64,000 nucleotides of DNA, taken from a virus. Below the pieces are notes generated by a model. That model had not been told where the DNA came from and searched no databases. It was given only the letters and a program-made list of their open reading frames with translations. The stretch spans positions 64,001 to 128,000 of the IMG/VR virus record IMGVR_UViG_3300037245_001077; one strand, written 5' to 3'. Made by a program: the position numbers and the translations under genes. Each line of letters opens with the position of its first letter. Positions within the stretch are counted from its first letter, which is position 1. Positions 6,291 through 18,500 of the stretch are shown piece by piece.

Positions 6291-8683
6291 GGTACCTGGA
6301 GATGTGGAGTTGTGCCATGAGTGATTTCAAAGGAACCCTTGTTGTGACTATGCGATTCGACATACCTGTGCGTGCAGGTATGTACCAAACGGTGTTGAAG
6401 GAGAAGGGCGTAGTAACGCCTGACGATATCATTCGCATCGAAGAGCAGAATTACCTGGACAATGCGGACGACTACCTTGAGATCATGGGGGATCATGTGT
6501 CTGAAGTGTCATTTGATTTTCTGCCAGAGTCGAAAGGGGTAAAGCGTGAGTGACGATCTGTTGATTGACGATGATGAGTTGCTACCGGGTGAACTTGCTT
6601 TCACTTCTGCGGATCTCGAACGGCAAATAACAGACTTAACTGCGGTTTTGAAAAGGAAAGACGAGGAAGCCGAGCGTAGCTTGACTCAACTTCAACTCGA
6701 CGCTAACGCTGAGTATAAGCTGATAGTGAAAGAGCGACAGATGATTGAGGAGGAGCTAAATACTCTCAAAACCAACTTTGGGCGGTTAGAGGTAGAGGGC
6801 GAGAATATAAGTCTCGAAGGTAAACAGGTATTTGACCGTCTCGTGGAATTGGATAAAGAACGCATGATTGGGGTTCTGGCTATCCGCTTTCTCGCTCGAC
6901 GGATATCTGATGGTTTGATTTCTGTAGGTGCCTTACCCAATATCGACAAGAATATCTATGTGGCTCTTAGGGCGTGGGCAGAGAAAGCCACACCCCCCTT
7001 CTTTGAGGATGGCTGGCCCGAGGACAAGGCTCTTGGTGAGATACTAATGGAGATGTTTAAGGTTACTGGTACAACAGGTTCATATGCAAACATGTCTGGA
7101 AGGATCCAAGAGCTATTGACAGAGGATGAGAGCGAAGACTTCCAGAAGTACATGGACAAGGTACCGATTATTGACCCTCTTGGTATTACGAGTAAGACGG
7201 CTAGGCTGTACGCGAAGATTTCCCCTGAACTGGCAGGTGTCATACCTAAAGCACAAAGCTGGAAGCCTAGGGGGGCAGATGATATTTGAATGTGCAACTG
7301 ATGGATGTACAACTAAAACAGAGCGTAGAAGCCCTAGGCACAAGTACTGTGATGTATGTGCAACTAAAAGGAAGACCGACTATAATAAGGTTTGGTATGA
7401 AACTATTGGTGCTGAATGGAAGAGGATAAACTACTTAGAGAGCCGAGGGGGTATCCTTGTTACACCTAGAACACCGGAAGCTAAAGAGAAGACTAGACAA
7501 AGAGCTTTGAAAAGACACAGAGAGTACCAACAGCGGCCTGAGGTTAGAGAAAGACGTAAAAAATATGAGCAGCGGGCTAAAGTAGAGGAGCGTAATATTG
7601 GTTTGAGGGCAGAAATTATTGTTCTCCGCAGAGAACGCCGTCTTCAAGAGGAACGTGACGGTGGGAGACGTTTTTTTAGACGAAGAGCTAAAATTAGTGA
7701 GCCATATCTGCCAAAGCACCTTATATGGGGAAAGCCAGAAGAGGATGAAGTATCGTGAGCAAATCACAGGTTAGTAAGGAGCAGGTGGAGCACTTACATA
7801 AGAGTTGGCGCGGTAGGGGTGGGCGCAGTTCTCTGTATAACCTTGCTAAGAGACATGGAATAACCCTCAATGAAGCTTACGTGATTTTGAGTAGTCCCTT
7901 GCACGCTGCCACGAAGAGAGTGGAGATGGGGAAGAAGTTCGTGTCCTACAGGGAGAGATAATGCGAATCAAGGTCAATTGGTTTGTACGCTTCGTGGCTA
8001 AGGTGGCTAGAGTTGATCTTGATAGCTACGCCTGTGAGGACAAGAAGGACAAGAAGAGAGGCAGTGTAGACTTCAGTAAGGTAATGGCACAGCCGTTGCT
8101 ACCTCCCCGGCTTCAGTCAGACCTTAAGAGGATCATAGAGGAACAAGCAGAGCTAGCTGAGAAAATCACGGGGGTTAACCAACCACATACGGGAAGATCA
8201 CTAACGCAGGCTGGACAATGGAATGAAACAACCTTCACGGTTGGTACGGCTGAGGATCCCCAAGAGCTGTTAGAGAACATCTACTGGCCTGTGACTAAGG
8301 GTAATGGCCCTGGTGAGGTTACAGTAGACCCGTTGTCACAGGCGCGTGAGGATGCCCTTGAGGAGATCAATAGGCAGTACGCTATCCCTAAGGAGCTATG
8401 GGATAAGTTCAGGACTGAGGAGCAGATGGGGAAGTACTACCGGGAGCAGTTAGAGGAGTACATCCTTGCTAACGCACAGTCCGATGCCCCTCCACGTACT
8501 ACAGCGAAAGAGTATGCCGAGGTGGTGTATAGAGCCTTACAGAGAATGAGTGGTGTAGAGACTCCTCCCCGGCTTCAGTTCTCCCCCACACAGGACAAGC
8601 TGATAATCAGCCCTCCTCCGCCTGATCTAGAAGATGATTTGGGCGTAGATGGATGCGAGATACCAGAAGAGATGTTTGATTAG

Positions 8684-9010
8684 TATTATGTTATGTATAC
8701 ACATGACATAGTTATTAACTATAGAACTTCTTTGTTTTCAGCCACTTACAAAAAGCCATGTCAGTTTTGTATATAAACGTACTTGCAGTATGTCCAATTT
8801 ACCGAGGTTACCCGGCGTTATAAGGGTATTTTATTACATAAAATGCATTTAATGTTATTATGTGTATGAGTTACAATGATTATAATCTGTAAGTTCTTTA
8901 GAATCAAGAGGTTAAAAAGTAATAAATACTACATTTAAGATACATAAGGTTTATAAGCCCGGATAACCTACATAGTTATCGTTCATTAGATGCTTTTAGT
9001 GCGAATCAAA
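8684..9010. other. AT-rich non-coding region
   Basis: No ORF, clearly more AT-rich than flanks, with degenerate inverted repeats. Confidence 0.6.
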
Positions 9011-9017
9011 AATGAGT

Positions 9018-9091
9018 ACCCCTGTAGCTCAATGGTAGAGCGTGGTCCTTATAAGGCCGTGACCCGAGTTCAACTCTCGGCAGGGGTACCA
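9018..9091 (+). tRNA. tRNA-Ile(TAT)
   Basis: Cloverleaf ACCCCTG/CAGGGGT, anticodon loop CT-TAT-AA, encoded CCA. Confidence 0.9.
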
Positions 9092-9092
9092 C

Positions 9093-9122
9093 TTGACAAC
9101 TTCGATACTTAGGTGGTATCGT
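9093..9122 (+). promoter_or_regulatory. sigma70-type promoter for tmRNA
   Basis: TTGACA-18 nt-TATCGT with TG extension. Confidence 0.55.
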
Positions 9123-9144
9123 GTTCCTAGCTTATACAGCACGA

Positions 9145-9175
9145 GGGAGGAAGGACGCGATGCGACCAACCTCCC
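9145..9175 (+). repeat. Conserved hairpin motif, copy 1
   Basis: GGGAGG-[AAGGACGCGATGCGACCAA]-CCTCCC; loop nearly identical to the copy at 10897. Confidence 0.7.
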
Positions 9176-9195
9176 GCCATGGTCTTTCAAAATAT

Positions 9196-9536
9196 GGGGG
9201 CGCACTGGTTTTGACAGGGATGTTTGACGAGAGGGAGAAGCGTGTCGTGTTTGCTTTCGGCGTTAACGAAGGCTACTCGTTTAGTTGACGAATTTGAACA
9301 ACTACCCTTAGCGGCATAGTTCCGCTAACGTGGTCCTAGAAACTCCACCTATCTGGAGACCACGCTATTAGGTGGGCTGAGGTTTCCGTGCTCCATTTGC
9401 AGAGGAAGGCGTAAAGCTCATGTAGGTTAACTTCCTCATCTTAAAAGTAGGGCTTGCTTGAGCCTATCAAGCTACACACGTAGAAGGCTCTTAGATCCTT
9501 CCTTGGACGTGGGTTCGATTCCCACCGCCTCCACCA
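9196..9536 (+). ncRNA. ssrA: tmRNA, tag (A)DEFEQLPLAA*
   Basis: 5' GGGGGCG pairs with 3' CGCCTCC-ACCA (G3.U70), T-arm GGTTCGATTCC, tag ORF 9287-9319 ending LAA-stop. Confidence 0.95.
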
Positions 9537-9554
9537 ATTTTTTAAGGAGACAAG

Positions 9555-9872
9555 ATGAAGTTAATCACACAAATTCCCGAGGTAGGTATCCTTCCGAATG
9601 GTTTGTGGTGGAAGTATGTCCCCGTAAGGGATGATTTTTTTCATTTCGCTATAGGTTTTTGTTGGCGTTGGGGGAAACCCTACTACGATGAGTTTGATAT
9701 GAAGGAGAAGGACTTCTCCAGAGGGTTTCGCACGTCTTTACGATTGGTGAAAAAAGGTAGAGAGTATCGACTTATTCCTGAGCTTTTCTTTTGGGAAGAA
9801 GGCCAACAGTATGGGACGAAGCAGTGGTTTGATCGTAAGCTTTGGAGAACGACCGAAAAAATATCGGATTAG
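9555..9872 (+). CDS. Hypothetical protein
   Basis: SD AAGGAG, aromatic-rich 105 aa. Confidence 0.6.
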   Translation: MKLITQIPEVGILPNGLWWKYVPVRDDFFHFAIGFCWRWGKPYYDEFDMKEKDFSRGFRTSLRLVKKGREYRLIPELFFWEEGQQYGTKQWFDRKLWRTTEKISD

Positions 9873-9875
9873 GGG

Positions 9876-9904
9876 TTGACAAATCCTAAAACATATCCGA
9901 TACT
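9876..9904 (+). promoter_or_regulatory. sigma70-type promoter for the large ncRNA
   Basis: TTGACA-17 nt-GATACT, followed by boxA-like GATCTTTGACA. Confidence 0.65.
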
Positions 9905-9949
9905 AACTACCTTGCATGTAAATGCAACGATCTTTGACATTCAGGATAT

Positions 9950-10815
9950 GGCCACATGGGGTCATTAAGGAAACAGGGGAGTAATCCCCTGGAAGGGGTA
10001 ACGAGAGTGTTACGCTCGCCCACCTATCTTCGGGTAGGCCCATCCATGAGAATCGCGGGTAGCCCGAGCCACGGGTGGGTACGTGTGCCCTAACCTGAGG
10101 AGCAAGGTGATTGTACGGTGGTGCTAGATAAGGGACAAACCGGGTCTTCGGGCCACAAGGTAGCTCTTATCGATTCCTAGCAGGGATGCTAGGTAATCAT
10201 CGATCCAATTGTGAATCAGGCCACTCCTAAGCGATAGATACCTTAGTCCGAGGAAATGGCAAACCTAGGGCGGGGTAGCAGTACCATTGAGGTTTGGGCG
10301 GAATTCCCAAAAATCAAGAAGTACGGGTAAAGGGACAGCTAGTCTCGAATGCCAGGGCGCGTGTTGTATTTTGTGGCTCAAAAGGCTACGAAGCGATGGA
10401 CAGGGCACGAACCCAGTGACATTATCACCGTGAAATTCGCCTAATAGCAAGGCGTTTGGCCTTAGGACCAAAAGATGAGGGTGCAATTCCTTCATTTCAC
10501 TTCAAAACGATAAGGAAAGTCCCTGTCGGTCGCTAAGCGAAAGGGGCCTAAGCCTCTCCCCGCAAGGGAAGGGAGGCCACCGAAGCTCCCAAGGCTGAAA
10601 GTGGTCAATGTGGAAATGAAGACCTTGAGACGGCCATCTCAGGACGGACTGGAAACATCGAGTCGCGGAGCGATGACGAAGGAAATGCTACCTTCTTAAA
10701 AAAGCGGTCCTGGTCGAATACTGGAGAGATCCGGTGGATAAGTTGTTAACTGAAGGATGGAACCTTAGGGTACGGCAACAAAAGGTTGACCACAATAATG
10801 GGTAGTCTCACCATT
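9950..10815 (+). ncRNA. Large structured ncRNA, probably GOLLD family
   Basis: ~860 nt with no credible ORF, many GNRA/UUCG hairpins, own promoter, tRNA-array context and nested tRNA-like domain. Segments GTGTTGTATTTTGTGGCTCAAAAGG and terminal GTAGTCTCA resemble GOLLD as I recall it. Ends approximate. Confidence 0.7.
10430..10501 (+). ncRNA. tRNA-like domain nested in the large ncRNA
   Basis: Acceptor GTGAAAT/ATTTCAC, D-stem GCCT/AGGC, anticodon stem TTTGG/CCAAA with 8-nt loop CCTTAGGA, T-arm GAGGG-TGCAATT-CCTTC, no CCA. Confidence 0.75.
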
Positions 10816-10896
10816 TTCTTTTATTCTCTACCAGTGGTAGGGAATCTTCAAAGGCTCGGTGGTGCCCGCCTGGACGAAACCACCCTATTTTGTCCC

Positions 10897-10929
10897 TAGC
10901 GGGAAGAACGCGATGCGCCTAACCCGCTA
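10897..10929 (+). repeat. Conserved hairpin motif, copy 2
   Basis: TAGCGGG-[AAGAACGCGATGCGCCTAA]-CCCGCTA. Confidence 0.7.
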
Positions 10930-10946
10930 AATTTTGGTTGTAGTGT

Positions 10947-11021
10947 CGCGGAGTGTAGCAGCGGTAGCTAAGCTGGCTCATAACCAGATGGTCGGGGGTT
11001 CGAATCCCCCCTCCGCAACCA
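10947..11021 (+). tRNA. tRNA-Met(CAT), initiator-like
   Basis: Loop CT-CAT-AA, C1xA72 mismatch, CCA; only two of the three initiator G-C anticodon-stem pairs. Confidence 0.9.
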
Positions 11022-11070
11022 AGTTTAGGGGGTGTTCTTTCACCCCTTTTCTTTATTGTCTGGAGAGAGT

Positions 11071-11223
11071 ATGACCCGCAACGCTTTGATCCAGGCTATT
11101 ATCGAGATGGTTACATCTTCTTTACCCAAGAAGATAACGTTGACCAAGAAGATTGGCAAGGATTTGTGGGTAACGGATACGAAGAGAATGCTCGCCCTTA
11201 TGAAGAAGAAGAGGAAGAAGTAA
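11071..11223 (+). CDS. Basic protein, MTREE-motif family
   Basis: MTRNALIQAIIE start after GGAG; Lys-rich body. Confidence 0.65.
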   Translation: MTRNALIQAIIEMVTSSLPKKITLTKKIGKDLWVTDTKRMLALMKKKRKK

Positions 11224-11224
11224 C

Positions 11225-11590
11225 ATGACCCGCGAAGAGCTTACCGAAGCCATTGTTGAAGCAGTTATCGGTTCGCACGAGGCGGGTGTAGCTATCAATA
11301 CCATGTACAACCAGCATCCAAAGCTCTTTAAGAAAATAAACAAGTGGGAATCAGGGAAACGACGGCGTTTGCAGGTTATGAGAAAATTACGGTTGTCTAA
11401 GGATGACGATTTTGATATTAATGATAAGGCGGTAAGCCACTCTACACGCAAAGCGCATAAGTGGTTGTCTAAACGAAAGAATCCGTTAAATCGGACGTTT
11501 CAGGATCGGGTAAAGGCCGTAACTCGTAAGCCTTCAAAGCAAGTAGCGAAGGACGCGCATTACAATATGCGTTCTAGAATGACTTATTAG
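11225..11590 (+). CDS. Basic protein, MTREE-motif family
   Basis: MTREELTEAIVE then K/R-rich body. Confidence 0.75.
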   Translation: MTREELTEAIVEAVIGSHEAGVAINTMYNQHPKLFKKINKWESGKRRRLQVMRKLRLSKDDDFDINDKAVSHSTRKAHKWLSKRKNPLNRTFQDRVKAVTRKPSKQVAKDAHYNMRSRMTY

Positions 11591-11600
11591 AGGAAATAAC

Positions 11601-11642
11601 ATGTTCGTGACAACGATTAAAACCGAGGAGGAAAAGATCTAG
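11601..11642 (+). CDS. Attenuator leader peptide 1 MFVTTIKTEEEKI
   Basis: SD GAGGA; 10 of 12 non-start codons are Thr/Ile/Lys/Glu, the amino acids of the downstream tRNAs. Confidence 0.85.
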   Translation: MFVTTIKTEEEKI

Positions 11643-11647
11643 GATAG

Positions 11648-11698
11648 CCCTGGACATACCTTCGGTGTATCTCCAGGGACCGTAAGGTCTCTTTTTTT
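11648..11698 (+). terminator. Attenuator 1: antiterminator CCCTGGA/TCCAGGG overlapping terminator GGGACC-GTAA-GGTCTC-T7
   Basis: Both hairpins need GGG 11676-11678. Confidence 0.8.
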
Positions 11699-11708
11699 GT
11701 GTCTATGA

Positions 11709-11782
11709 GCCGGTGTAGCATAATGGCAATGCGCGTCTCTTGTAAAGACGGAGATCCAGTTCAACTCTGGCATCCGGCTCCA
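11709..11782 (+). tRNA. tRNA-Thr(TGT)
   Basis: CGTCT-CT-TGT-AA-AGACG, CCA; slightly irregular acceptor/T junction. Confidence 0.85.
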
Positions 11783-11787
11783 ATATT

Positions 11788-11862
11788 CACCCTGTAGAAC
11801 AATGGTCAGTTTACCGGGCTTTCAACCCGATGATCGGGGTTCAACTCCCCGCAGGGTGACCA
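11788..11862 (+). tRNA. tRNA-Glu(TTC)
   Basis: Loop CT-TTC-AA, CACCCTG/CAGGGTG, CCA. Confidence 0.9.
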
Positions 11863-11866
11863 ACTT

Positions 11867-11942
11867 GGCGGTGTCTGCTAACGGTTAGGCAACATGGTTC
11901 TCACCCATGAAATGGCGGGTTCGATTCCCCCCACCGTCACCA
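11867..11942 (+). tRNA. tRNA-Glu(CTC)
   Basis: CATGG-TT-CTC-AC-CCATG, CCA. Confidence 0.9.
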
Positions 11943-11954
11943 TAGGAGATCAAC

Positions 11955-12107
11955 ATGAACGGCGACCGAAACGACAAGATGTCCGAACTCATGCGAGCAA
12001 TTCGCTGGGGGTGGGACTGTATGTACCCTGTCCGTATCAAGGGTAGTGAGAAACGTCGTTTGCGTCGAAAATACCGTCACGATGCTAAACGTGAGATAGC
12101 CCTGTAG
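11955..12107 (+). CDS. 50-aa basic ORF inside tRNA operon 1
   Basis: SD AGGAG; MNGDRNDKMSELMRAIRWGWDC...; stop codon lies inside the 5' end of tRNA-Ile. Confidence 0.5.
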   Translation: MNGDRNDKMSELMRAIRWGWDCMYPVRIKGSEKRRLRRKYRHDAKREIAL

Positions 12108-12172
12108 CTCAGTGGTAGAGCAGAGGGTCGATAACCCTCGTGTCCGTGGTTCGAATCCACGTGGGGCTACCA
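12098..12172 (+). tRNA. tRNA-Ile(GAT)
   Basis: GAGGG-TC-GAT-AA-CCCTC, CCA. Confidence 0.92.
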
Positions 12173-12179
12173 TTTACAC

Positions 12180-12255
12180 ACCCCCATGACGCAACTGGCA
12201 GCGTAGCTGGCTCTTAACCAGTATGTTGAAGGTTCGACTCCTTCTGGGGGTACCA
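12180..12255 (+). tRNA. tRNA-Lys(CTT)
   Basis: Loop CT-CTT-AA, CCA. Confidence 0.92.
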
Positions 12256-12258
12256 TGT

Positions 12259-12333
12259 GGGATCGTGGCGCAATGGAAGCGCAACAGGCTTTTAACCTGA
12301 ATGTTGAGAGTTCGAGTCTCTCCGGTCCCACCA
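12259..12333 (+). tRNA. tRNA-Lys(TTT)
   Basis: Loop CT-TTT-AA, CCA. Confidence 0.92.
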
Positions 12334-12365
12334 CCTTCTTCCTTCTTTATTTCTTGGGAGATGCT

Positions 12366-12599
12366 ATGACCCGAGAAGAACTTATTGAAGCCATTGTTGA
12401 AGTGATGCAGCGAAGTAAACATCCTCTAACGGGTGGTCATTTCAGTTTTCCTCCTCCTATGAAAACAAGAGCAGGGCAGTGGACAAGACGGAAGCGTTTG
12501 AGGGTTGTTTCTGGTGCTATGACAGGTAAAGACCCTAGCATAACGAAATCTATGGCTTTTGCTTCTGAAATAGCTCGAAGAAAACGAGCAAACAAATAG
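12366..12599 (+). CDS. Basic protein, MTREE-motif family
   Basis: MTREELIEAIVE; start re-assigned to 12366 (SD GGGAG). Confidence 0.75.
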   Translation: MTREELIEAIVEVMQRSKHPLTGGHFSFPPPMKTRAGQWTRRKRLRVVSGAMTGKDPSITKSMAFASEIARRKRANK

Positions 12600-12610
12600 A
12601 GGATTAAAAT

Positions 12611-12844
12611 ATGACCCGTGAAGAGATTATTGAAGCCATTATCCTTACTGAGTTCGAGCCTTTGACTATGATTGCTGCTGGTGCGGCTACTGGTTACGCG
12701 GCTAGAAAGTTGAGAAACCGTTATAGCGTTAAAGGAGCCACAGGTGCGGCTAAGAGAAGTTCGGCTATCTCGAAGGCATATGCGAAGAAGGCTGAGCGGC
12801 ATACCGCAAGGGCAAAGTTCCTTACTGCTAGAAAGAACGCATAA
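12611..12844 (+). CDS. Basic protein, MTREE-motif family
   Basis: MTREEIIEAIILTE, Ala/Gly segment, basic tail. Confidence 0.75.
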   Translation: MTREEIIEAIILTEFEPLTMIAAGAATGYAARKLRNRYSVKGATGAAKRSSAISKAYAKKAERHTARAKFLTARKNA

Positions 12845-13944
12845 TGACCCGAGATAAGATTATTGAAGATATTGTTGAAGGCTACGTCAAAGATGTGCTC
12901 ACTTACGATTTGAGTAAGCATCATCCTAGACCCCATGAGCGCTTCCGCTTCAACAACGCAGCCCGTAAAGCCAAAGAGAAGGCACGGGAAGTGTTTAGGA
13001 ACAAAGCCAAGAGCGCACATGATACTCAACCTATTGACGTTTCCAAGTTTGTATCCAAATCTACAGCTCGTAGGGCACCGGGGATCAAAGTCCCCAAAAG
13101 CTATCGCCCTAAACTTAAGATGAGTTCAGCTAGGCGAAAGGGTCCAACCGTTCGCCAACAGCAGGGCAGAAAAGCAGTGTTGGGTGCAGCGGCAGCTATT
13201 GGTGCGGGTATGGTGGCTCATAAGGCGTACAAGTACCATAAGGCCAAAAAGAAAAGAGAGATGCGTGAAGGCTTGATTGAGGCCCTTTCTACTCATAAGG
13301 TCTACAAGGCTAGGATGTTTTCAAAGAAGCCACAATCTTATGCTAAAACAATGACTTATTGGCAAACTCCAGAACAGAAGAGTTTAAAAGCTGTTAAGAA
13401 AAAGATTCCCGTGGTTTCTTTAGAGTTAAGGAGTAAAAAGGATAAGTCTACCCATCAGGTGTCGCTTGCTCCAGATCCTCGTAAGAGGCTTTGGGGGAAA
13501 TTGGCAAAGATGCAGGGGTTTGACCCTAAATCAAAGAAAGCAACGCTTAAACGACGGGCGTTTTATCGTTTGCGTAAGAACAAGTACAAGGTTGTTGAGG
13601 GTGACCTAGGGGACTTCGCTGTAGCCCCAACCGCAGCCGTAGACGCTTCCCCGATCCATAAAGAGCAGAGGGATCGGTATTGGATGATCAAGAACCGTAA
13701 GAAGATCAAGAACATGATAGTGAAAGAGGTTTTTGACGACACCTATGGTTCGAGCGTGCTTGACCGAGCAGCACGGGTGGAAAAATCTACAAACTTTATT
13801 GCTAAGGCGAAAAAGCTTAAAAGCCTTGTTGGTAAGGCGAGAAAGCTTACTAAGGATTATGAGCTTGGTATGTACCACGGTGCGGGCAAAATGTCTAAGA
13901 TGAATATCTCTTTGGGTAACAAAAAATTTGGGAAGATAGGGTAG
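12844..13944 (+). CDS. Long basic protein, MTREE-motif family
   Basis: MTRDKIIEDIVE plus internal MREGLIEAL. Confidence 0.75.
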   Translation: MTRDKIIEDIVEGYVKDVLTYDLSKHHPRPHERFRFNNAARKAKEKAREVFRNKAKSAHDTQPIDVSKFVSKSTARRAPGIKVPKSYRPKLKMSSARRKGPTVRQQQGRKAVLGAAAAIGAGMVAHKAYKYHKAKKKREMREGLIEALSTHKVYKARMFSKKPQSYAKTMTYWQTPEQKSLKAVKKKIPVVSLELRSKKDKSTHQVSLAPDPRKRLWGKLAKMQGFDPKSKKATLKRRAFYRLRKNKYKVVEGDLGDFAVAPTAAVDASPIHKEQRDRYWMIKNRKKIKNMIVKEVFDDTYGSSVLDRAARVEKSTNFIAKAKKLKSLVGKARKLTKDYELGMYHGAGKMSKMNISLGNKKFGKIG

Positions 13945-13952
13945 GGGTTAAC

Positions 13953-14225
13953 ATGACACGCGAAGAAGTGATTGAAGCCATTGTATACGAGATGACGCAA
14001 GAGAAAAAAGATAAGTGGAAGTCTCGTGCCAAGAAAACTGCAATCGGGGCTGGTATAATTGGAGTAGGTGTTCTTGCTACGAAAGCTCCTAAAGCTAAGC
14101 GTTATCATGCTTTAGGTAAAAAGGTGTCTTCTACGGTGGATAGTAGCGCTTACAGACAAGCTTTGGTTTCTAAGAACAAATATGGATTGCATGTTGACAA
14201 ATACTATGGTTCTTCTTCTTTTTAA
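13953..14225 (+). CDS. Basic protein, MTREE-motif family
   Basis: MTREEVIEAIVYE. Confidence 0.75.
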   Translation: MTREEVIEAIVYEMTQEKKDKWKSRAKKTAIGAGIIGVGVLATKAPKAKRYHALGKKVSSTVDSSAYRQALVSKNKYGLHVDKYYGSSSF

Positions 14226-14228
14226 GGC

Positions 14229-14257
14229 TTGACAACGGTAACAAAAGATGCCATACT
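14229..14257 (+). promoter_or_regulatory. sigma70-type promoter of tRNA operon 2
   Basis: TTGACA-17 nt-CATACT with TG extension. Confidence 0.75.
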
Positions 14258-14266
14258 AAATCAGTA

Positions 14267-14326
14267 ATGAAGAATTTTCTATATACCCTCGTTGATTGTG
14301 TAGCCCACTTTGATAGTTGGCTTTAG
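14267..14326 (+). CDS. Attenuator leader peptide 2 MKNFLYTLVDCVAHFDSWL
   Basis: Contains all 8 amino acids (D,L,A,H,C,Y,F,V) of the downstream tRNAs; ATG 9 nt after the -10 box. Confidence 0.85.
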   Translation: MKNFLYTLVDCVAHFDSWL

Positions 14327-14377
14327 GGGGGTTTTTGTCTTTTCGTCTTTGACACCCCCTGCACAAGGGGGTTTTTT
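14325..14377 (+). terminator. Attenuator 2: antiterminator AGGGGG..TGTC/GACACCCCCT versus terminator ACCCCCT-GCACA-AGGGGGT-T5
   Basis: The C-run 14355-14359 can pair with either G-run. Confidence 0.8.
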
Positions 14378-14384
14378 AGTATTC

Positions 14385-14461
14385 GGGGGTGTAGTCTAGT
14401 AGAGTAAGGCCCTGGATTGTCAGTCCAGTGATCGCCGGTTCGAGTCCGGTCACTCCCGCCA
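14385..14461 (+). tRNA. tRNA-Asp(GTC)
   Basis: CTGGA-TT-GTC-AG-TCCAG, G73, CCA. Confidence 0.92.
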
Positions 14462-14481
14462 AGTTCTTTGAAAATTAGTGT

Positions 14482-14566
14482 GCTGAGGTGGCGAAGTTGG
14501 TAGACGCGCTGGTCTTAGGAACCAGTGTCTTCGGGCGTGTGGGTTCGAATCCCTCCCTCAGCACCA
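14482..14566 (+). tRNA. tRNA-Leu(TAG)
   Basis: CTGGT-CT-TAG-GA-ACCAG, long variable arm, CCA. Confidence 0.92.
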
Positions 14567-14577
14567 AAATATCGTGT

Positions 14578-14653
14578 GGGCTGTCATGTTCCAAGGGGGC
14601 GAGGAGCACTTGCAATGCACCTGTGGAGGGTTCGATTCCCTTGCGGTCCACCA
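14578..14653 (+). tRNA. tRNA-Ala(TGC)
   Basis: Loop CT-TGC-AA, G3.U70, atypical D arm, CCA. Confidence 0.85.
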
Positions 14654-14657
14654 AGTT

Positions 14658-14731
14658 GTGAGGGTAGTGTAATGGCAGCACGAGAGTTTGTGGCACTCTC
14701 AGAGCGGATTCAAATTCCGTCCCTCACCCCA
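14658..14731 (+). tRNA. tRNA-His(GTG)
   Basis: AGAGT-TT-GTG-GC-ACTCT, C73, CCA; G-1 not encoded. Confidence 0.88.
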
Positions 14732-14811
14732 GTTTCGGTTTTGGGGGTCCGACACAGTGTTACAAGCTACCTCAGAGGTAGTTCAAGGGCACTCTACAAA
14801 ATCCCCATTTG

Positions 14812-14885
14812 AGGGTGGTGGCCGAGAGGCTAGGCAGGGGACTGCAAATCCTTTTACGCGGGTTCAAATCCCGCCCACCTTTCCA
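14812..14885 (+). tRNA. tRNA-Cys(GCA)
   Basis: Loop CT-GCA-AA, U73, CCA. Confidence 0.92.
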
Positions 14886-14886
14886 T

Positions 14887-14972
14887 GCCAGTATAGACCT
14901 CTATGGAGGGGGGACGGGTTGTAGCCCCGTTGTTGCAAGGCCCGCAAGGTTCGATTCCTTGTACTGGCACCA
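14887..14972 (+). tRNA. tRNA-Tyr(GTA)
   Basis: ACGGG-TT-GTA-GC-CCCGT, long variable arm, CCA. Confidence 0.88.
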
Positions 14973-14975
14973 TTT

Positions 14976-15051
14976 GCCTCTGTAGCTCAGGTAGTAGAGC
15001 GCGAGACTGAAGATCTCGGCGTCGGGGGTGCAAGTCCTCCTGGGGGCACCA
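14976..15051 (+). tRNA. tRNA-Phe(GAA)
   Basis: CGAGA-CT-GAA-GA-TCTCG, CCA. Confidence 0.9.
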
Positions 15052-15054
15052 TTT

Positions 15055-15130
15055 AGGCAGGTAGCTCAGTTGGTAGAGTTGCTGGTTTACACCCAGTCTG
15101 TCATCGGTTCGAATCCGGTCCTGCCTACCA
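15055..15130 (+). tRNA. tRNA-Val(TAC)
   Basis: Loop TT-TAC-AC, CCA. Confidence 0.92.
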
Positions 15131-15192
15131 TTCACTTTATTGTTTGGGGTATGTATGTTTCGTGAAGATTATTTTATAAAACGGGATAAAAT

Positions 15193-16068
15193 ATGACGGA
15201 TAGAAATTTAGATTATGACTATGCTGCAAAGCAACGAGATATTACTCGTGAGCAGTATGCTAAAGGAACATATATTTATGCTGGTTATAGTCCTGCAACA
15301 CCTTTAGTGTGGAATGTTGAGGATCAGCCGATTGGCTCAGGTGCTCCGGCAAACGTGTTTGACGCCTGGGGCGAGGACTTGGAGGTCCGGGCGATCCCTG
15401 TGGATGGGAAAGAGCCGCTGACGCCGTTCACCAAGGAGCTTCATGCAAAAACAGGGAACCCTGGATATCTCTATGGGCTGTACTTCACATTATTGCTCGA
15501 TGGTTTTGATATTGATTTGAATAATGGTAAATTCCGGGTTGAAATTGTGGCTCGGCATGTTGTCCCAGATCCAGAATTTCAGCCCGGTCAATACTTACAG
15601 CTTGGTGAGGACGACTATTACCCAGAATGGGATACGTGGCGCATGTTCAAAGCCGGGTTTCTTTCTGAAGAGTCCGGCGAAAGTGATGTTCAATCTTGGC
15701 ATTGGGAGTTTGGTGGTGAACTATATAATTCGTTCTATGACTACAAGGTAAACTGGGAGTTCGGAACACCAATTGTCGGATACACTATCCACCAGATCGA
15801 GGTGGATTTCCAAGCTGGCGTGTTCGAGCAACGCATCGTTGGTCATTGGGCAGGAGATCAAGGAGAGCAATCATCTTGGTGGGTTAAGGCTCCTCGCGCC
15901 GCTGAATTTCCGGCTGGAGAACAGTCAGCACAGACGCTCATATTATGGCTTCAAGATAAAAACAGCGGAGAGGCGATGGTTACTCAGCTTTGGCTTGGCC
16001 CAATTACTGACCCATTCCCAAATGGCGCGGTTTTGACATCGAATATCGGGTTTGGAAATAGTTCTTGA
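15193..16068 (+). CDS. Hypothetical aromatic-rich protein (possible virion/lectin-like)
   Basis: 291-aa ORF between tRNA operons, W/Y/F-rich. Confidence 0.6.
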   Translation: MTDRNLDYDYAAKQRDITREQYAKGTYIYAGYSPATPLVWNVEDQPIGSGAPANVFDAWGEDLEVRAIPVDGKEPLTPFTKELHAKTGNPGYLYGLYFTLLLDGFDIDLNNGKFRVEIVARHVVPDPEFQPGQYLQLGEDDYYPEWDTWRMFKAGFLSEESGESDVQSWHWEFGGELYNSFYDYKVNWEFGTPIVGYTIHQIEVDFQAGVFEQRIVGHWAGDQGEQSSWWVKAPRAAEFPAGEQSAQTLILWLQDKNSGEAMVTQLWLGPITDPFPNGAVLTSNIGFGNSS

Positions 16069-16093
16069 CAAGCCCTTTATTGGGTGTTAGAGT
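16065..16093 (+). promoter_or_regulatory. sigma70-type promoter of tRNA operon 3
   Basis: TTGACA-17 nt-TAGAGT with TG extension. Confidence 0.75.
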
Positions 16094-16102
16094 GATTAAG
16101 TT

Positions 16103-16171
16103 ATGAAGAGATTATCCTCAAGGTTGTGGCAACAGAGCGGCTCGAATCCGAGTCGCCCAGGAGAGCTGTAA
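16103..16171 (+). CDS. Attenuator leader peptide 3 MKRLSSRLWQQSGSNPSRPGEL
   Basis: Has a codon readable by each of the 12 downstream tRNAs; all 21 non-start sense codons differ. Confidence 0.9.
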   Translation: MKRLSSRLWQQSGSNPSRPGEL

Positions 16172-16236
16172 CTAAGGGGTAAAGATGCCAATTCGCCCGT
16201 TCCGTTCTTACCCCCTAGTACAGTAGGGGGTTTTTT
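16172..16236 (+). terminator. Attenuator 3: antiterminator CTAAGGGGTAAAGA/TCTTACCCCCTAG versus terminator ACCCCCTA-GTACAG-TAGGGGGT-T5
   Basis: Shared C-run 16211-16215. Confidence 0.85.
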
Positions 16237-16246
16237 ATTGATCTAA

Positions 16247-16258
16247 GTTCTTTGAAAA
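16247..16258 (+). promoter_or_regulatory. boxA-like antitermination site
   Basis: GTTCTTTGAAAA; identical copy at 14463-14474. Confidence 0.6.
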
Positions 16259-16271
16259 CAAAAAGTTATGT

Positions 16272-16348
16272 CCGAGAATGGCGCAGTTTGGCAGCGCACT
16301 TGGTTTGGGACCAAGGTGTCGAAGGTTCAAATCCTTCTTCTCGGACCA
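16272..16348 (+). tRNA. tRNA-Pro(TGG)
   Basis: CTTGG-TT-TGG-GA-CCAAG, CCA. Confidence 0.92.
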
Positions 16349-16349
16349 T

Positions 16350-16434
16350 GGAAGGTACCGTCTATGGAGACAAGCGGTTTTGAACACCGTAGGCACGTGT
16401 AAGCGCGGGGGTTCGATTCCTCTACCTTCCTCCA
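16350..16434 (+). tRNA. tRNA-Ser(TGA)
   Basis: Loop TT-TGA-AC, long variable arm, CCA. Confidence 0.88.
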
Positions 16435-16444
16435 AGTTGTGTGT

Positions 16445-16519
16445 TCGGGCATGGTGTTAGTGGTAGCATACGAGGTTTCCACCCTCTGGGGCCGGGTTCG
16501 AGTCCTGGTGCCCGAACCA
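16445..16519 (+). tRNA. tRNA-Gly(TCC)
   Basis: Loop TT-TCC-AC, CCA. Confidence 0.88.
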
Positions 16520-16529
16520 AAATTTATGT

Positions 16530-16603
16530 AGGGGTATAGTGAAATGGTATCACGGCAGATTCCAGACCTGCTTTTCCGGGTTCAAATCCTGGTACCTCTG
16601 CCA
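16530..16603 (+). tRNA. tRNA-Trp(CCA)
   Basis: Loop TT-CCA-GA, G73, CCA. Confidence 0.88.
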
Positions 16604-16609
16604 AAGATT

Positions 16610-16698
16610 GGAAGGGTGGCTGAGTGGTAACAGCGCCGGGTTGCTAACCCGAGGCCGCGCTTCGGCGTGCGAGGGTTCGATCCCCTCTCCTTCCTCCA
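16610..16698 (+). tRNA. tRNA-Ser(GCT)
   Basis: Loop TT-GCT-AA, long variable arm, CCA. Confidence 0.92.
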
Positions 16699-16704
16699 AG
16701 TGTT

Positions 16705-16808
16705 GAACGGTGTGGCGTGGCAGCGTCAGGTTTTCCGTTAAGGAGATCATCCCTCCACTGCCTAATCGGAGAATGATGGGAGCTGGGTGGGGAATCCAGC
16801 CACCGTTC
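16705..16808 (+). ncRNA. Putative ~105-nt structured RNA of unknown class
   Basis: Closed by GAACGGTG/CACCGTTC, occupies a slot between two tRNAs. Confidence 0.5.
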
Positions 16809-16818
16809 ACTTTTTTGA

Positions 16819-16895
16819 GGCCCTGTAGCTCAGCGAACAGAGCATATGGCTACGAACCATAGTTGTCGGGGGTTTGAATCCCTCCAGGGCTTCCA
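16819..16895 (+). tRNA. tRNA-Arg(ACG)
   Basis: TATGG-CT-ACG-AA-CCATA, CCA. Confidence 0.92.
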
Positions 16896-16898
16896 TTT

Positions 16899-16974
16899 GC
16901 ACCCGTGGTCTAATGGCAAAGGCACTGCGTTTCTACCGCAGCAGATGTGGGTTCGACTCCTACCGGGTGTTCCA
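16899..16974 (+). tRNA. tRNA-Arg(TCT)
   Basis: CTGCG-TT-TCT-AC-CGCAG, CCA. Confidence 0.92.
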
Positions 16975-16984
16975 AAACTTATTC

Positions 16985-17063
16985 GGCACGGTAGCTTAGC
17001 ATGGCCTAAAGCAGTAGTTTGTTAAACTAATGATCGTAGGTTCAAATCCTACCTGTGCCGCCA
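16985..17063 (+). tRNA. tRNA-Asn(GTT)
   Basis: Loop TT-GTT-AA, G73, CCA. Confidence 0.9.
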
Positions 17064-17069
17064 AATTTT

Positions 17070-17156
17070 GCTGGAGTGGCTGGAATTGGTATACGCAGGG
17101 GACTTAAAATCCCTGGCCGAAAGGTCGTGTGGGTTCGACTCCCACCTCCAGCACCA
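17070..17156 (+). tRNA. tRNA-Leu(TAA)
   Basis: Loop CT-TAA-AA, long variable arm, CCA. Confidence 0.92.
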
Positions 17157-17161
17157 GCTAT

Positions 17162-17238
17162 GCCGCTCTGGGCCAATTGGTAGAGTCGGGGGTCTCAAAA
17201 GCCCTTTGTTCCGAGTTCGAATCTCGGGGGCGGCACCA
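17162..17238 (+). tRNA. tRNA-Leu(CAA), short variable loop
   Basis: Loop CT-CAA-AA, A73, CCA, only a 5-nt variable region. Confidence 0.85.
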
Positions 17239-17241
17239 TTT

Positions 17242-17317
17242 AGCGGAGTAGCTCAATTGGTAGAGCACTGGACTCTGAATTCAGTTGTTGTAGGTTCAAA
17301 CCCTACCTCCGCTGCCA
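17242..17317 (+). tRNA. tRNA-Gln(CTG)
   Basis: Loop CT-CTG-AA, CCA. Confidence 0.92.
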
Positions 17318-17392
17318 TTTTGATTGCAGAAACTGACACTTTTTGGTAGGTTACGCGAATGAAAAGCACTGTTTGTGGTCATAATGACTACT

Positions 17393-17468
17393 AGGGGAGT
17401 AGCTCAATTGGTGGAGCAACAGGCTTTGAACCTGTTGGATGTGAGTTCGAACCTCACCTCCCCTTCCA
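17393..17468 (+). tRNA. tRNA-Gln(TTG)
   Basis: ACAGG-CT-TTG-AA-CCTGT, CCA. Confidence 0.92.
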
Positions 17469-17693
17469 TGTATACTTTATTGAAGGCCATGTGTGCTATG
17501 GACACTTTTATCGTTTTGCTAATTGGGGTTGTCGCTTTGATAGCGATTGCTATGGGGTTGAGTGACCGATACTCTCCTCCTTGTCCGAAATGTGGAAAGG
17601 GTCTTAAGATTCTAGGAGCAGACTATCTATGTATCTCGTGTGACAGGGTTTACTCAGAGGATGAAATTCCAACTTAGTTGTGGCTGCAAAGGC

Positions 17694-17722
17694 TTGACAA
17701 ACAACCCTACACCATCTATGAT
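17694..17722 (+). promoter_or_regulatory. sigma70-type promoter
   Basis: TTGACA-17 nt-TATGAT. Confidence 0.75.
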
Positions 17723-17810
17723 TCTAGTGCTATGACAACTGGAATTCTTCACCAATCTATTCATTTGCCCGCCTCTTTAGGTGGGCCTTGCTGTTTAAGG
17801 AGGAAAAACA

Positions 17811-18194
17811 ATGAAGTTGTATGTTTTGTTTGAGCAACCGGATGAAACGTATCCGGGGCAGTATGCGCCGTTAGCCGTTACGGTACTCGATGAGTACACT
17901 GTGGATAATTCCGGAAGATCGCTTCACGAGGCTCAGGAGGCAGAACTTGCTCGTCTTTCTATGAAGGAAGGGTTTGATCCTACAGATGCTAAGTGGGCCT
18001 GGGTTGAGGTGGATCTTGGTGTGACTGAACAGTTGATCCGAGATGCTATTCTTCAGCCTGCCCTCGCTGTCCAAGGTGTAGTAGCAGTTCCGGCTGCTCC
18101 TCAAGGGCAGAAACACCCTTCTTATCAGGCCATTACCGTGACTAGAGGAAGGCCAGGAGCAGGAAGAATTGTTGACGATGAAATTGTGGAGTAA
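17811..18194 (+). CDS. Hypothetical protein
   Basis: Strong SD TAAGGAGG. Confidence 0.7.
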   Translation: MKLYVLFEQPDETYPGQYAPLAVTVLDEYTVDNSGRSLHEAQEAELARLSMKEGFDPTDAKWAWVEVDLGVTEQLIRDAILQPALAVQGVVAVPAAPQGQKHPSYQAITVTRGRPGAGRIVDDEIVE

Positions 18195-18197
18195 CCC

Positions 18198-18500
18198 ATG
18201 CCCAAGTATAAACGTTATGGGTATGTGGTGGTGGAAAGGTTCTCAAAGCCTTTCGGATTAGTGGCATGTACAAATGTTGGCTTTCACCTTAATCCCCAAA
18301 AAGCGCAGGAACAGGTTGATGCTATAATCGAGTCCGCTGGAGAGGGTAAAGTCGTTGCAGATGAAACAGTTACAGGCAAAGACGATTTTGTCCCCTCTAT
18401 CCGTCGTCATGTCTTAATTGAATACCCTGGTCACGAGACTCTCCAGGTTCTCATCCAGCGATGGTATGTGGAGGTTGGGAGAGATCGCCATGGGGGATAG
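18198..18500 (+). CDS. Hypothetical protein
   Basis: SD GGAG, operon position. Confidence 0.6.
   Translation: MPKYKRYGYVVVERFSKPFGLVACTNVGFHLNPQKAQEQVDAIIESAGEGKVVADETVTGKDDFVPSIRRHVLIEYPGHETLQVLIQRWYVEVGRDRHGG

Follow-up and report, generated by a model that had tools for sequence, protein, structure and literature searches.

Attenuation of transcription by a translated leader peptide is a classical mechanism in enterobacteria. The thrL leader has Thr and Ile codons, those of ilvGMEDA and ilvBN respond to Ile, Leu and Val, and trpL, hisL, pheL and leuL belong to the same group. To our knowledge all leader-peptide attenuators described up to now regulate either enzymes of amino-acid biosynthesis or a synthetase. 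The tRNA genes of phages are usually discussed in relation to codon usage, to decay of the host tRNAs and to escape from anticodon nucleases; as far as we know, almost nothing has been established on the control of their expression. In a full-text literature search we did not come across any account of tRNA genes controlled by leader-peptide attenuation. Here we describe a phage locus (L1) which, with a probability of roughly 80%, we consider to be a ribosome-mediated leader-peptide transcription attenuator of the trp/thr/ilv type, gating six phage tRNA genes. This reading depends on the sequence and on models of RNA folding.

The window, which is the whole stretch of 64,000 nucleotides that was analysed, is part of a virus genome of 176,533 bp with 47.8% GC. 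Its portal protein has less than 30% identity to that of any cultured phage, the nearest being Flavobacterium and Microcystis myoviruses; a blastn search of INPHARED gave only generic tRNA similarity and no cultured phage resembling the region. Positions 9,000–17,500 form an island of RNA genes, as found with ARAGORN and Rfam: it contains tRNA-Ile(UAU), a tmRNA, a GOLLD RNA, tRNA-Met and then three blocks of tRNA genes, A, B and C, all three on the + strand. Block A (11709–12333, ARAGORN) has the anticodons Thr-UGU, Glu-UUC, Glu-CUC, Ile-GAU, Lys-CUU and Lys-UUU; in both ARAGORN and Rfam the first three genes occupy 11709–11942 and the last three 12098–12333. Block B (14385–15130) has Asp, Leu-UAG, an atypical Ala-like gene, His, Cys, Tyr, Phe and Val. 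Block C (16272–17468) is the largest one, with Pro, Ser, Gly, Trp, Ser, Arg, Arg, Asn, Leu, Leu, Gln and Gln.

L1 is found just upstream of block A on the + strand. Its leader ORF (11601–11642), MFVTTIKTEEEKI*, has 13 codons and a stop: ATG TTC GTG ACA ACG ATT AAA ACC GAG GAG GAA AAG ATC TAG. As the initial annotation had claimed, it contains both Lys codons (AAA and AAG), GAG twice and GAA for Glu, ATT and ATC for Ile, and ACA, ACG and ACC for Thr. A Shine-Dalgarno sequence, GAGGA (11590–11594, + strand), can be read 6 nt upstream of the ATG, and the + strand has no predicted sigma-70-like promoter from 10425 to 14229; a Shine-Dalgarno sequence and the lack of an obvious promoter of its own had both been noted before. 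Upstream there is a 121-aa ORF, with its TAG stop at 11588–11590, and further away, after tRNA-Met, a terminator-like hairpin (11027–11048), downstream of which no promoter is seen.

Three hairpin elements follow one another on the + strand. The segment 11622–11643, from the ACCGAGG codons to the stop (UCUAGG), is in the minimum free energy structures a predicted anti-antiterminator (region 1): its partner would be the 5' arm and the loop of the antiterminator when no ribosome covers it. The antiterminator (11648–11678) has the structure CCCUGGA-CAUACC..GGUGUAU-C-UCCAGGG, where CCCTGGA (11648–11654) pairs with TCCAGGG (11672–11678). Its 5' arm begins 5 nt past the stop and its final GGG (11676–11678) is shared with the 5' arm of the terminator. 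This intrinsic terminator (11675–11698) was also found independently by a consensus scan. It has a 7-bp stem, AGGGACC-GUAA-GGUCUCU (11675–11692), followed by the run T7 (11692–11698), and tRNA-Thr starts at 11709. There is no room for a promoter between the T7 and this gene, because the gap is only 10 nt. The position of the antiterminator after the stop and the way in which it takes the GGG of the terminator agree with the initial annotation. The UUCG cap which had been placed on the antiterminator has to be given up: the best register is AUACC/GGUGU with a loop of 3 nt, and the sequence CCUUCGG is replaced by CUAUCGG and CUCUCGG in the relatives.

Two side observations concern the region upstream of the leader. 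The ORFs which start at 11072 and 11225 both begin with MTR(N/E)-L-AI. A junction GTAACATG is found upstream of the 121-aa ORF (window 11225) and of the leader of the relative L013 (minus strand, ~606), with a similar TAACATG before the leader of the window (11601). Because this short junction repeat precedes both the 121-aa ORF and the leader, the 121-aa ORF seems to be a cassette gained or lost through recombination at the repeat. No homologue of this ORF is found among 5.8 billion proteins.

The codons of the leader were assigned to the phage tRNAs by wobble rules. Every one of codons 4–13 (11610–11639) can be read by the six tRNAs downstream, which is not the case for codons 2–3 (Phe and Val); reading of the Thr codon ACC requires extended wobble by U34. 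Without the start codon, the leader thus has ten codons out of twelve that are decoded by block A, and each of the six tRNAs has a codon in it. Since the codons of block A are 0.23 of the codon usage of the phage, the binomial probability of such a match is 1.9e-5; the joint probability of the match and of the coverage of all six tRNAs is about 5e-6. As an empirical control all 7,555 ORFs of 8–40 codons in the six frames of the whole genome were scored against each block, and L1 has rank 1 for the tRNA set of block A. The same is true for the other blocks: in each case the leader directly upstream of the block comes out first, with full coverage and the highest fraction. L1 has 10 matches with block A, 2 with block B and none with block C; L2, the leader of block B, has 2, 12 and 3, respectively (13 with its own block if the Ala-like tRNA is counted); L3, the leader of block C, has 2, 1 and 18. 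The matrix is sharply diagonal, with only 0–3 codons outside the diagonal.

As a control of specificity, the same scan script was run on Bacillus phage Chewbecca, Escherichia phage Cyrano and Microbacterium phage Cece, three cultured phages which carry tRNA arrays. It found no comparable leader with a terminator in any of the three; in the genome of the window and in its relatives it recovers the leaders, each with its terminator. The leader device is not a general property of phage tRNA arrays, because the script finds nothing of the kind in these three phages.

The alternative structures were studied by folding at equilibrium, with kinetics and RNA polymerase pausing outside the model. A ribosome footprint from –15 to +12 of the A site was masked at every codon, and pair probabilities were computed up to the end of the terminator stem. 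When the RNA after the stop (11643–11700) is taken alone, it adopts the antiterminator fold (–19.1 kcal/mol) and the terminator is cut to a 4-bp stub; the fold of the hairpin region is stronger than that of shuffled sequences (z = –2.5). Masking of 11643–11655, a check suggested in the initial annotation, gives the full 7-bp terminator (–12.9 kcal/mol) instead of the antiterminator of the free RNA (–19.1 kcal/mol). The terminator depends on the mask, as that annotation had anticipated, and does not form regardless of it. In the complete leader RNA the segment 11622–11643 pairs with the antiterminator arm and the whole terminator forms.

The partition function gives the same picture codon by codon. 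The lowest pair probability of the terminator is 0.74–0.80 in the absence of a ribosome, with a ribosome on codons 2–3 or with a ribosome on the stop; it is 0.00–0.08 when the A site is on any of codons 6–12, namely AUU, AAA, ACC, GAG, GAG, GAA and AAG. Within the model these results are the truth table of a trp-type attenuator, and the two codons which do not match block A are exactly those at which a ribosome stall would not antiterminate. When folding is followed sequentially and nothing masks the RNA from the stop onward, the terminator 5' arm is engaged in pairing (–16.6 kcal/mol) ahead of the appearance of the 3' arm; with 13 nt masked it is free. The orthologues of L1 in L011 and L013 have the same masked-ribosome pattern as the window: in silico the antiterminator and the terminator are mutually exclusive in the three orthologues, with the ribosome position selecting one or the other.

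The folding evidence is at equilibrium only and the structures of the L2 type, described below, are nearly isoenergetic. L1 could in principle be a true codon sensor with another output: the processing or stability of the tRNA precursors, Rho, or a response of reversed polarity as in pyrBI-type coupling. Whatever the mechanism, RNase P would cut leader RNA that is attached to a tRNA precursor. Nevertheless we consider a different output improbable. The canonical U7 and the 7-bp GC-rich stem favour intrinsic termination, and the trp-type pattern is present in all three L1 orthologues. The stop codon lies 33 nt upstream of the terminator stem, a distance at which a terminating ribosome is physically unable to block the hairpin; a pyrBI-type mechanism was rejected on this geometry.

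The attenuator reading of L1 can be compared with related loci. Four metagenomic contigs were obtained through homologues of a 366-aa ORF found between blocks A and B, and a fifth one through the hairpin pattern. A search of IMG/VR for related loci with the 366-aa ORF and a 291-aa ORF found none. Portal relatives with 65–80% identity do exist in IMG/VR, but their contigs have no tRNAs and they were discarded as comparison loci. In pattern scans of viral contigs we did not find the L3 core, the L1 hairpins, the tmRNA tag or a degenerate L1 peptide; in genome contigs the degenerate L1 peptide and the L3 core were not found either.

L1 has two orthologues, in L011 (ENA, 8.2 kb) and L013 (JGI, 2.2 kb). 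In L011 the order is Ile-UAU, tmRNA, GOLLD, Met, two ORFs, the leader, the hairpins and Thr-Glu-Glu-Ile-Lys-Lys. L013 is a mosaic relative without GOLLD and without the 121-aa ORF. The leader peptide is identical in the window and in both relatives, with 95–100% identity of the leader ORF, and the third-codon positions are also conserved. There are only two substitutions in the leader of L011, both of them synonymous and placed in the Phe and Val codons, which are not sensing codons. Between the window and L011 the identity is 95% in the leader ORF and 89% from the stop to the T7, as compared with 60–93% in the six tRNAs of block A and 53% in the 100 nt upstream. The changes in the hairpins of the relatives either fall in loops or preserve pairing (C-G to U-G). 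In L011 the 3' arm of the terminator is GGUUCCU: a G.U pair is shifted and all 7 pairs are kept. The terminator loop may be GUAA, GAAA or GCAA. The anti-antiterminator pairing of L011 is weaker than that of the window. Both relatives have purine-rich counterparts of the Shine-Dalgarno sequence.

The L1 cassette is an island of conservation. It is found behind three different upstream genes, ORFs of 121, 95 and 63 aa, and in L013 the leader ATG lies 1 nt past the stop of the homologue of the 63-aa ORF, an arrangement which suggests reinitiation by a trailing ribosome. There are only two orthologues, one of them a mosaic close relative, and their peptide is the same, so that this is conservation without covariation of leader and tRNAs at L1.

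The tRNA bodies show a different behaviour. In L011 (6656–7121) the genes have the same anticodon and position as in the window, yet tRNA-Thr, tRNA-Glu(CUC) and both tRNA-Lys are only 60–65% identical, while tRNAs Met, Ile-UAU and Ile-GAU have 93–99% identity between relatives. This suggests that tRNA bodies have been replaced under a constant order of anticodons. The space between the tRNAs of block A is also variable. The window has a 50-aa ORF with its own Shine-Dalgarno sequence (11955–12107, + strand), which matches no Pfam family and is missing from L011. L013 and L014 have differing small protein genes with Shine-Dalgarno sequences between the tRNAs (L014 45–413 and 504–659), and L011 has none. 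In L013 the small gene is inserted after tRNA-Glu(CUC). A conserved Cys-rich protein of ~122 aa (…CMAWGFECGDGWFELIKEL…) is present in both L013 and L014.

Other genes of the island also have peculiar features. The GOLLD RNA (RF02032, 161 bits) occupies 9905–10940 of the window, between the tmRNA and tRNA-Met, with the Rfam hit at 10354–10814; it has its own predicted promoter, with TTGACA at 9876, and contains a tRNA-like cloverleaf (10430–10501) whose anticodon loop has 8 nt. It is kept in L011 and missing in L013, which has 175 nt in place of 1,410 nt. The phage tmRNA is found at 9196–9536. Its tag peptide, DEFEQLPLAA, recurs unchanged in L011 and L013 in spite of a tmRNA identity of just 79–83%. 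The Ala-like gene of block B (14577–14653), between tRNA-Leu and tRNA-His, has the anticodon loop CUUGCAA (UGC, Ala). It was missed by ARAGORN and is below the Rfam tRNA model, its top match being tRNA-Sec with 19 bits. Its orthologues in L010, L014 and L015 have a cloverleaf with an acceptor stem of 9–10 bp and compensatory changes in the anticodon stem; the gene has no G3:U70. If it is counted, the tRNA set of the phage covers all 20 amino acids. A similar case is found in L010 (3170–3268), where a tRNA-Tyr-like gene with the loop CUGUAAA, not called by ARAGORN, lies in the gap between tRNA-Cys and tRNA-Phe.

Blocks B and C have their own leaders on the + strand. L2 (14229–14378) has a promoter TTGACA/CATACT and a near-leaderless ORF (14267–14326), MKNFLYTLVDCVAHFDSWL*, in which 13 of the 18 codons match its 8 tRNAs. 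Its stop is fused to a G-run; the terminator upstream of block B, ACCCCCU-GCACA-AGGGGGU, has a T6 behind it. L3 (16065–16236) has a promoter TTGACA/TAGAGT and the ORF 16103–16171, MKRLSSRLWQQSGSNPSRPGEL*, with an orthologue in L010; 18 of its 21 codons match and all 12 of its tRNAs are covered. Its terminator (16210–16231, followed by T6) precedes these 12 tRNAs, from Pro to Gln-UUG. The distances from the U run to the first tRNA are 10, 6 and 35 nt in L1, L2 and L3, respectively. The tRNAs of blocks B and C would be made only by readthrough of the terminator, because the sole predicted promoter is upstream of the leader. In sequence the hairpins of L1 are unrelated to those of L2 and L3, as already remarked in the initial annotation.

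In L2 and L3 (14252–14269 and 16088–16105) the ATG comes exactly 9 nt after the end of the –10 hexamer, without a Shine-Dalgarno sequence; for these reasons both messages would be leaderless or nearly so. Both ORFs begin with ATG AAG A. The L3 orthologue of L010 has instead a 5' UTR of ~50 nt with a Shine-Dalgarno sequence. The equilibrium folding of L2 is ambiguous: its terminator and antiterminator are nearly isoenergetic, so that L2 would require kinetic control. The segment GGCTCGAATCC of L3 was considered as a remnant of a tRNA T-arm, and this idea was dropped because its arms do not pair as a T-arm.

The relatives give information on how these leaders change. L010, in which the homologue of the 366-aa ORF is 53% identical, keeps the leaders of blocks B and C; its tRNAs are 64–95% identical to those of the window and its L3 core is nearly invariant, with AGA and AGG swapped between two Arg positions. 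In L014, where this homologue is 31% identical, the leader of block B is MMSLCFLAAFSAYDHDLGT, with an order of residues unrelated to MKNFLYTLVDCVAHFDSWL; it covers all 7 tRNAs of its block (simulated P 1e-5) and has no Val codon, and tRNA-Val has there moved behind another gene. The leaders of block B have two Val codons in the window, one in L010 and none in L014; the tRNA-Val gene belongs to the block in the window and stands apart from it in the other two. We had also considered that V-to-A changes in the L010 leader track a gain of tRNA-Ala, an idea which was dropped when the window was seen to have the orthologous Ala-like tRNA missed by ARAGORN; the number of Val codons still follows the presence of tRNA-Val inside the block. 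The weakest leader of this type is that of L015, in which 9 codons out of 20 match and none is for Asp, though tRNA-Asp heads the block. All four B-type leaders have a G-run at the stop or at most 4 nt from it, which forms pairs with the C-run in the 5' arm of the terminator. Since composition and geometry are conserved and the peptide sequence is not, the comparison argues for a codon sensor rather than a functional peptide.

These data also bear on a simpler explanation of L1, an ordinary leaky terminator which ends the upstream protein operon, with a chance or vestigial ORF and tRNAs produced by basal readthrough. Genes commonly end in intrinsic terminators, and L1 does lie at the end of a protein-coding unit without a promoter of its own. 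Even so, a chance ORF would have to reach rank 1 of 7,555 with P about 5e-6, and the match is seen again at both other blocks and in relatives whose peptides are reshuffled. It would also have to be conserved at 95–100% between flanks at random-level identity and be followed by a second hairpin which overlaps the terminator by exactly the GGG that is needed. We find this explanation very unlikely, more so than a codon sensor with another output. Hardly any weight can be given to a functional micropeptide whose composition mirrors the tRNAs by coincidence: the same peptide is indeed found in three genomes, but in the sibling family the order of residues is not conserved and composition tracks the tRNA set (L014 and L015 as compared with the window), the third-codon positions are also conserved in L1 although a peptide function does not need them, and the peptide has only 13 residues, highly charged and without recognisable features.

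The attenuator reading of L1, which had been put forward in the initial annotation, is supported by the block-specific codon match, the mask-dependent terminator, the island of conservation and the same switch in two orthologues. Anatomy, statistics, conservation and in-silico switching have been observed directly; from them we infer translation of the leader, termination at the U run and a response to the supply of tRNA. Transcription would enter L1 from upstream, because L1 has no promoter of its own, and a ribosome synchronised with the polymerase would translate the 13-codon leader. When decoding of the Thr, Ile, Lys and Glu codons is rapid, the ribosome would reach the stop and cover the 5' arm of the antiterminator (11648–11654). 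The GGG at 11676–11678 would then be free, the 7-bp terminator would form and RNA polymerase would halt 10 nt before tRNA-Thr. When charged tRNA is scarce for any of these codons, decoding would be slow and the ribosome would stall on 11616–11636. In this position it would mask the anti-antiterminator segment of the leader and leave 11648–11678 free, so that the antiterminator would form, the terminator would be reduced to a 4-bp stub and the polymerase would proceed into the tRNA genes. Without translation, the leader RNA would pair with the antiterminator arm and termination would be the default. The net result would be a negative feedback, with an on-demand supply of precisely those tRNAs which are in the roster of the leader. 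L1 may also gate the small ORFs behind block A, because no terminator or promoter is predicted before 14229.

A more tentative idea, which we consider possible rather than probable, is that the three attenuators work together as an inducible system for tRNA replacement. The set of 26 tRNAs would be largely silent while the host tRNAs are intact, and each block would be induced by stalls on its own codons. The trigger might be host anticodon nucleases or other tRNA-depleting defences which cut tRNA-Lys, tRNA-Glu or others; alternatively, it might be a shut-off by the phage itself which degrades the host tRNAs. If this were true, each leader would be a codon-resolved damage sensor coupled to counter-defence.

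The attenuator reading of L1, if true, would account for the grouping of the tRNAs into separate blocks. It would also provide a compact and portable codon-specific sensor of decoding speed, with ~110 nt. A roster ORF with overlapping hairpins before a tRNA block would be a useful signature for the annotation of many uncultured large phages.

Among known systems, T-box riboswitches resemble L1 in sensing the status of tRNA and in having a terminator/antiterminator switch before genes related to translation. They differ in that their ligand is uncharged tRNA itself, contacted by a specifier codon and the T-box motif independently of translation. No T-box or other Rfam cis-regulatory family is found at 8500–18500 with E ≤ 0.1, which excludes L1 from the T-boxes. 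The pheM leader of E. coli pheST is close to L1 in that it attenuates a gene of the translation apparatus: it is a Phe-rich leader which controls Phe-tRNA synthetase. However, pheM controls a synthetase and senses one amino acid, whereas L1 is placed before tRNA genes. The closest resemblance is with leaders of the thrL/ilv/trpL type. They share with L1 a short leader (13–30 codons) rich in regulatory codons, and in both cases one leader can report several amino acids. They also share exclusive anti-antiterminator, antiterminator and terminator hairpins, the selection among them by the position of the ribosome, and termination as the untranslated default, which in L1 is found in silico. L1 differs from them by being phage-encoded, without sequence similarity to those leaders, and by having a roster in place of a run of a single codon: there are 1–3 codons for each of the six isoacceptors, with both codons of split boxes. 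The main difference is in the target. The genes downstream of L1 are not enzymes, as in the known class; they are six tRNAs and small ORFs without family. The loop would close on the sensed molecule itself, and L1 would be, if our reading is true, the first classic attenuation with a feedback loop acting directly on tRNA supply.
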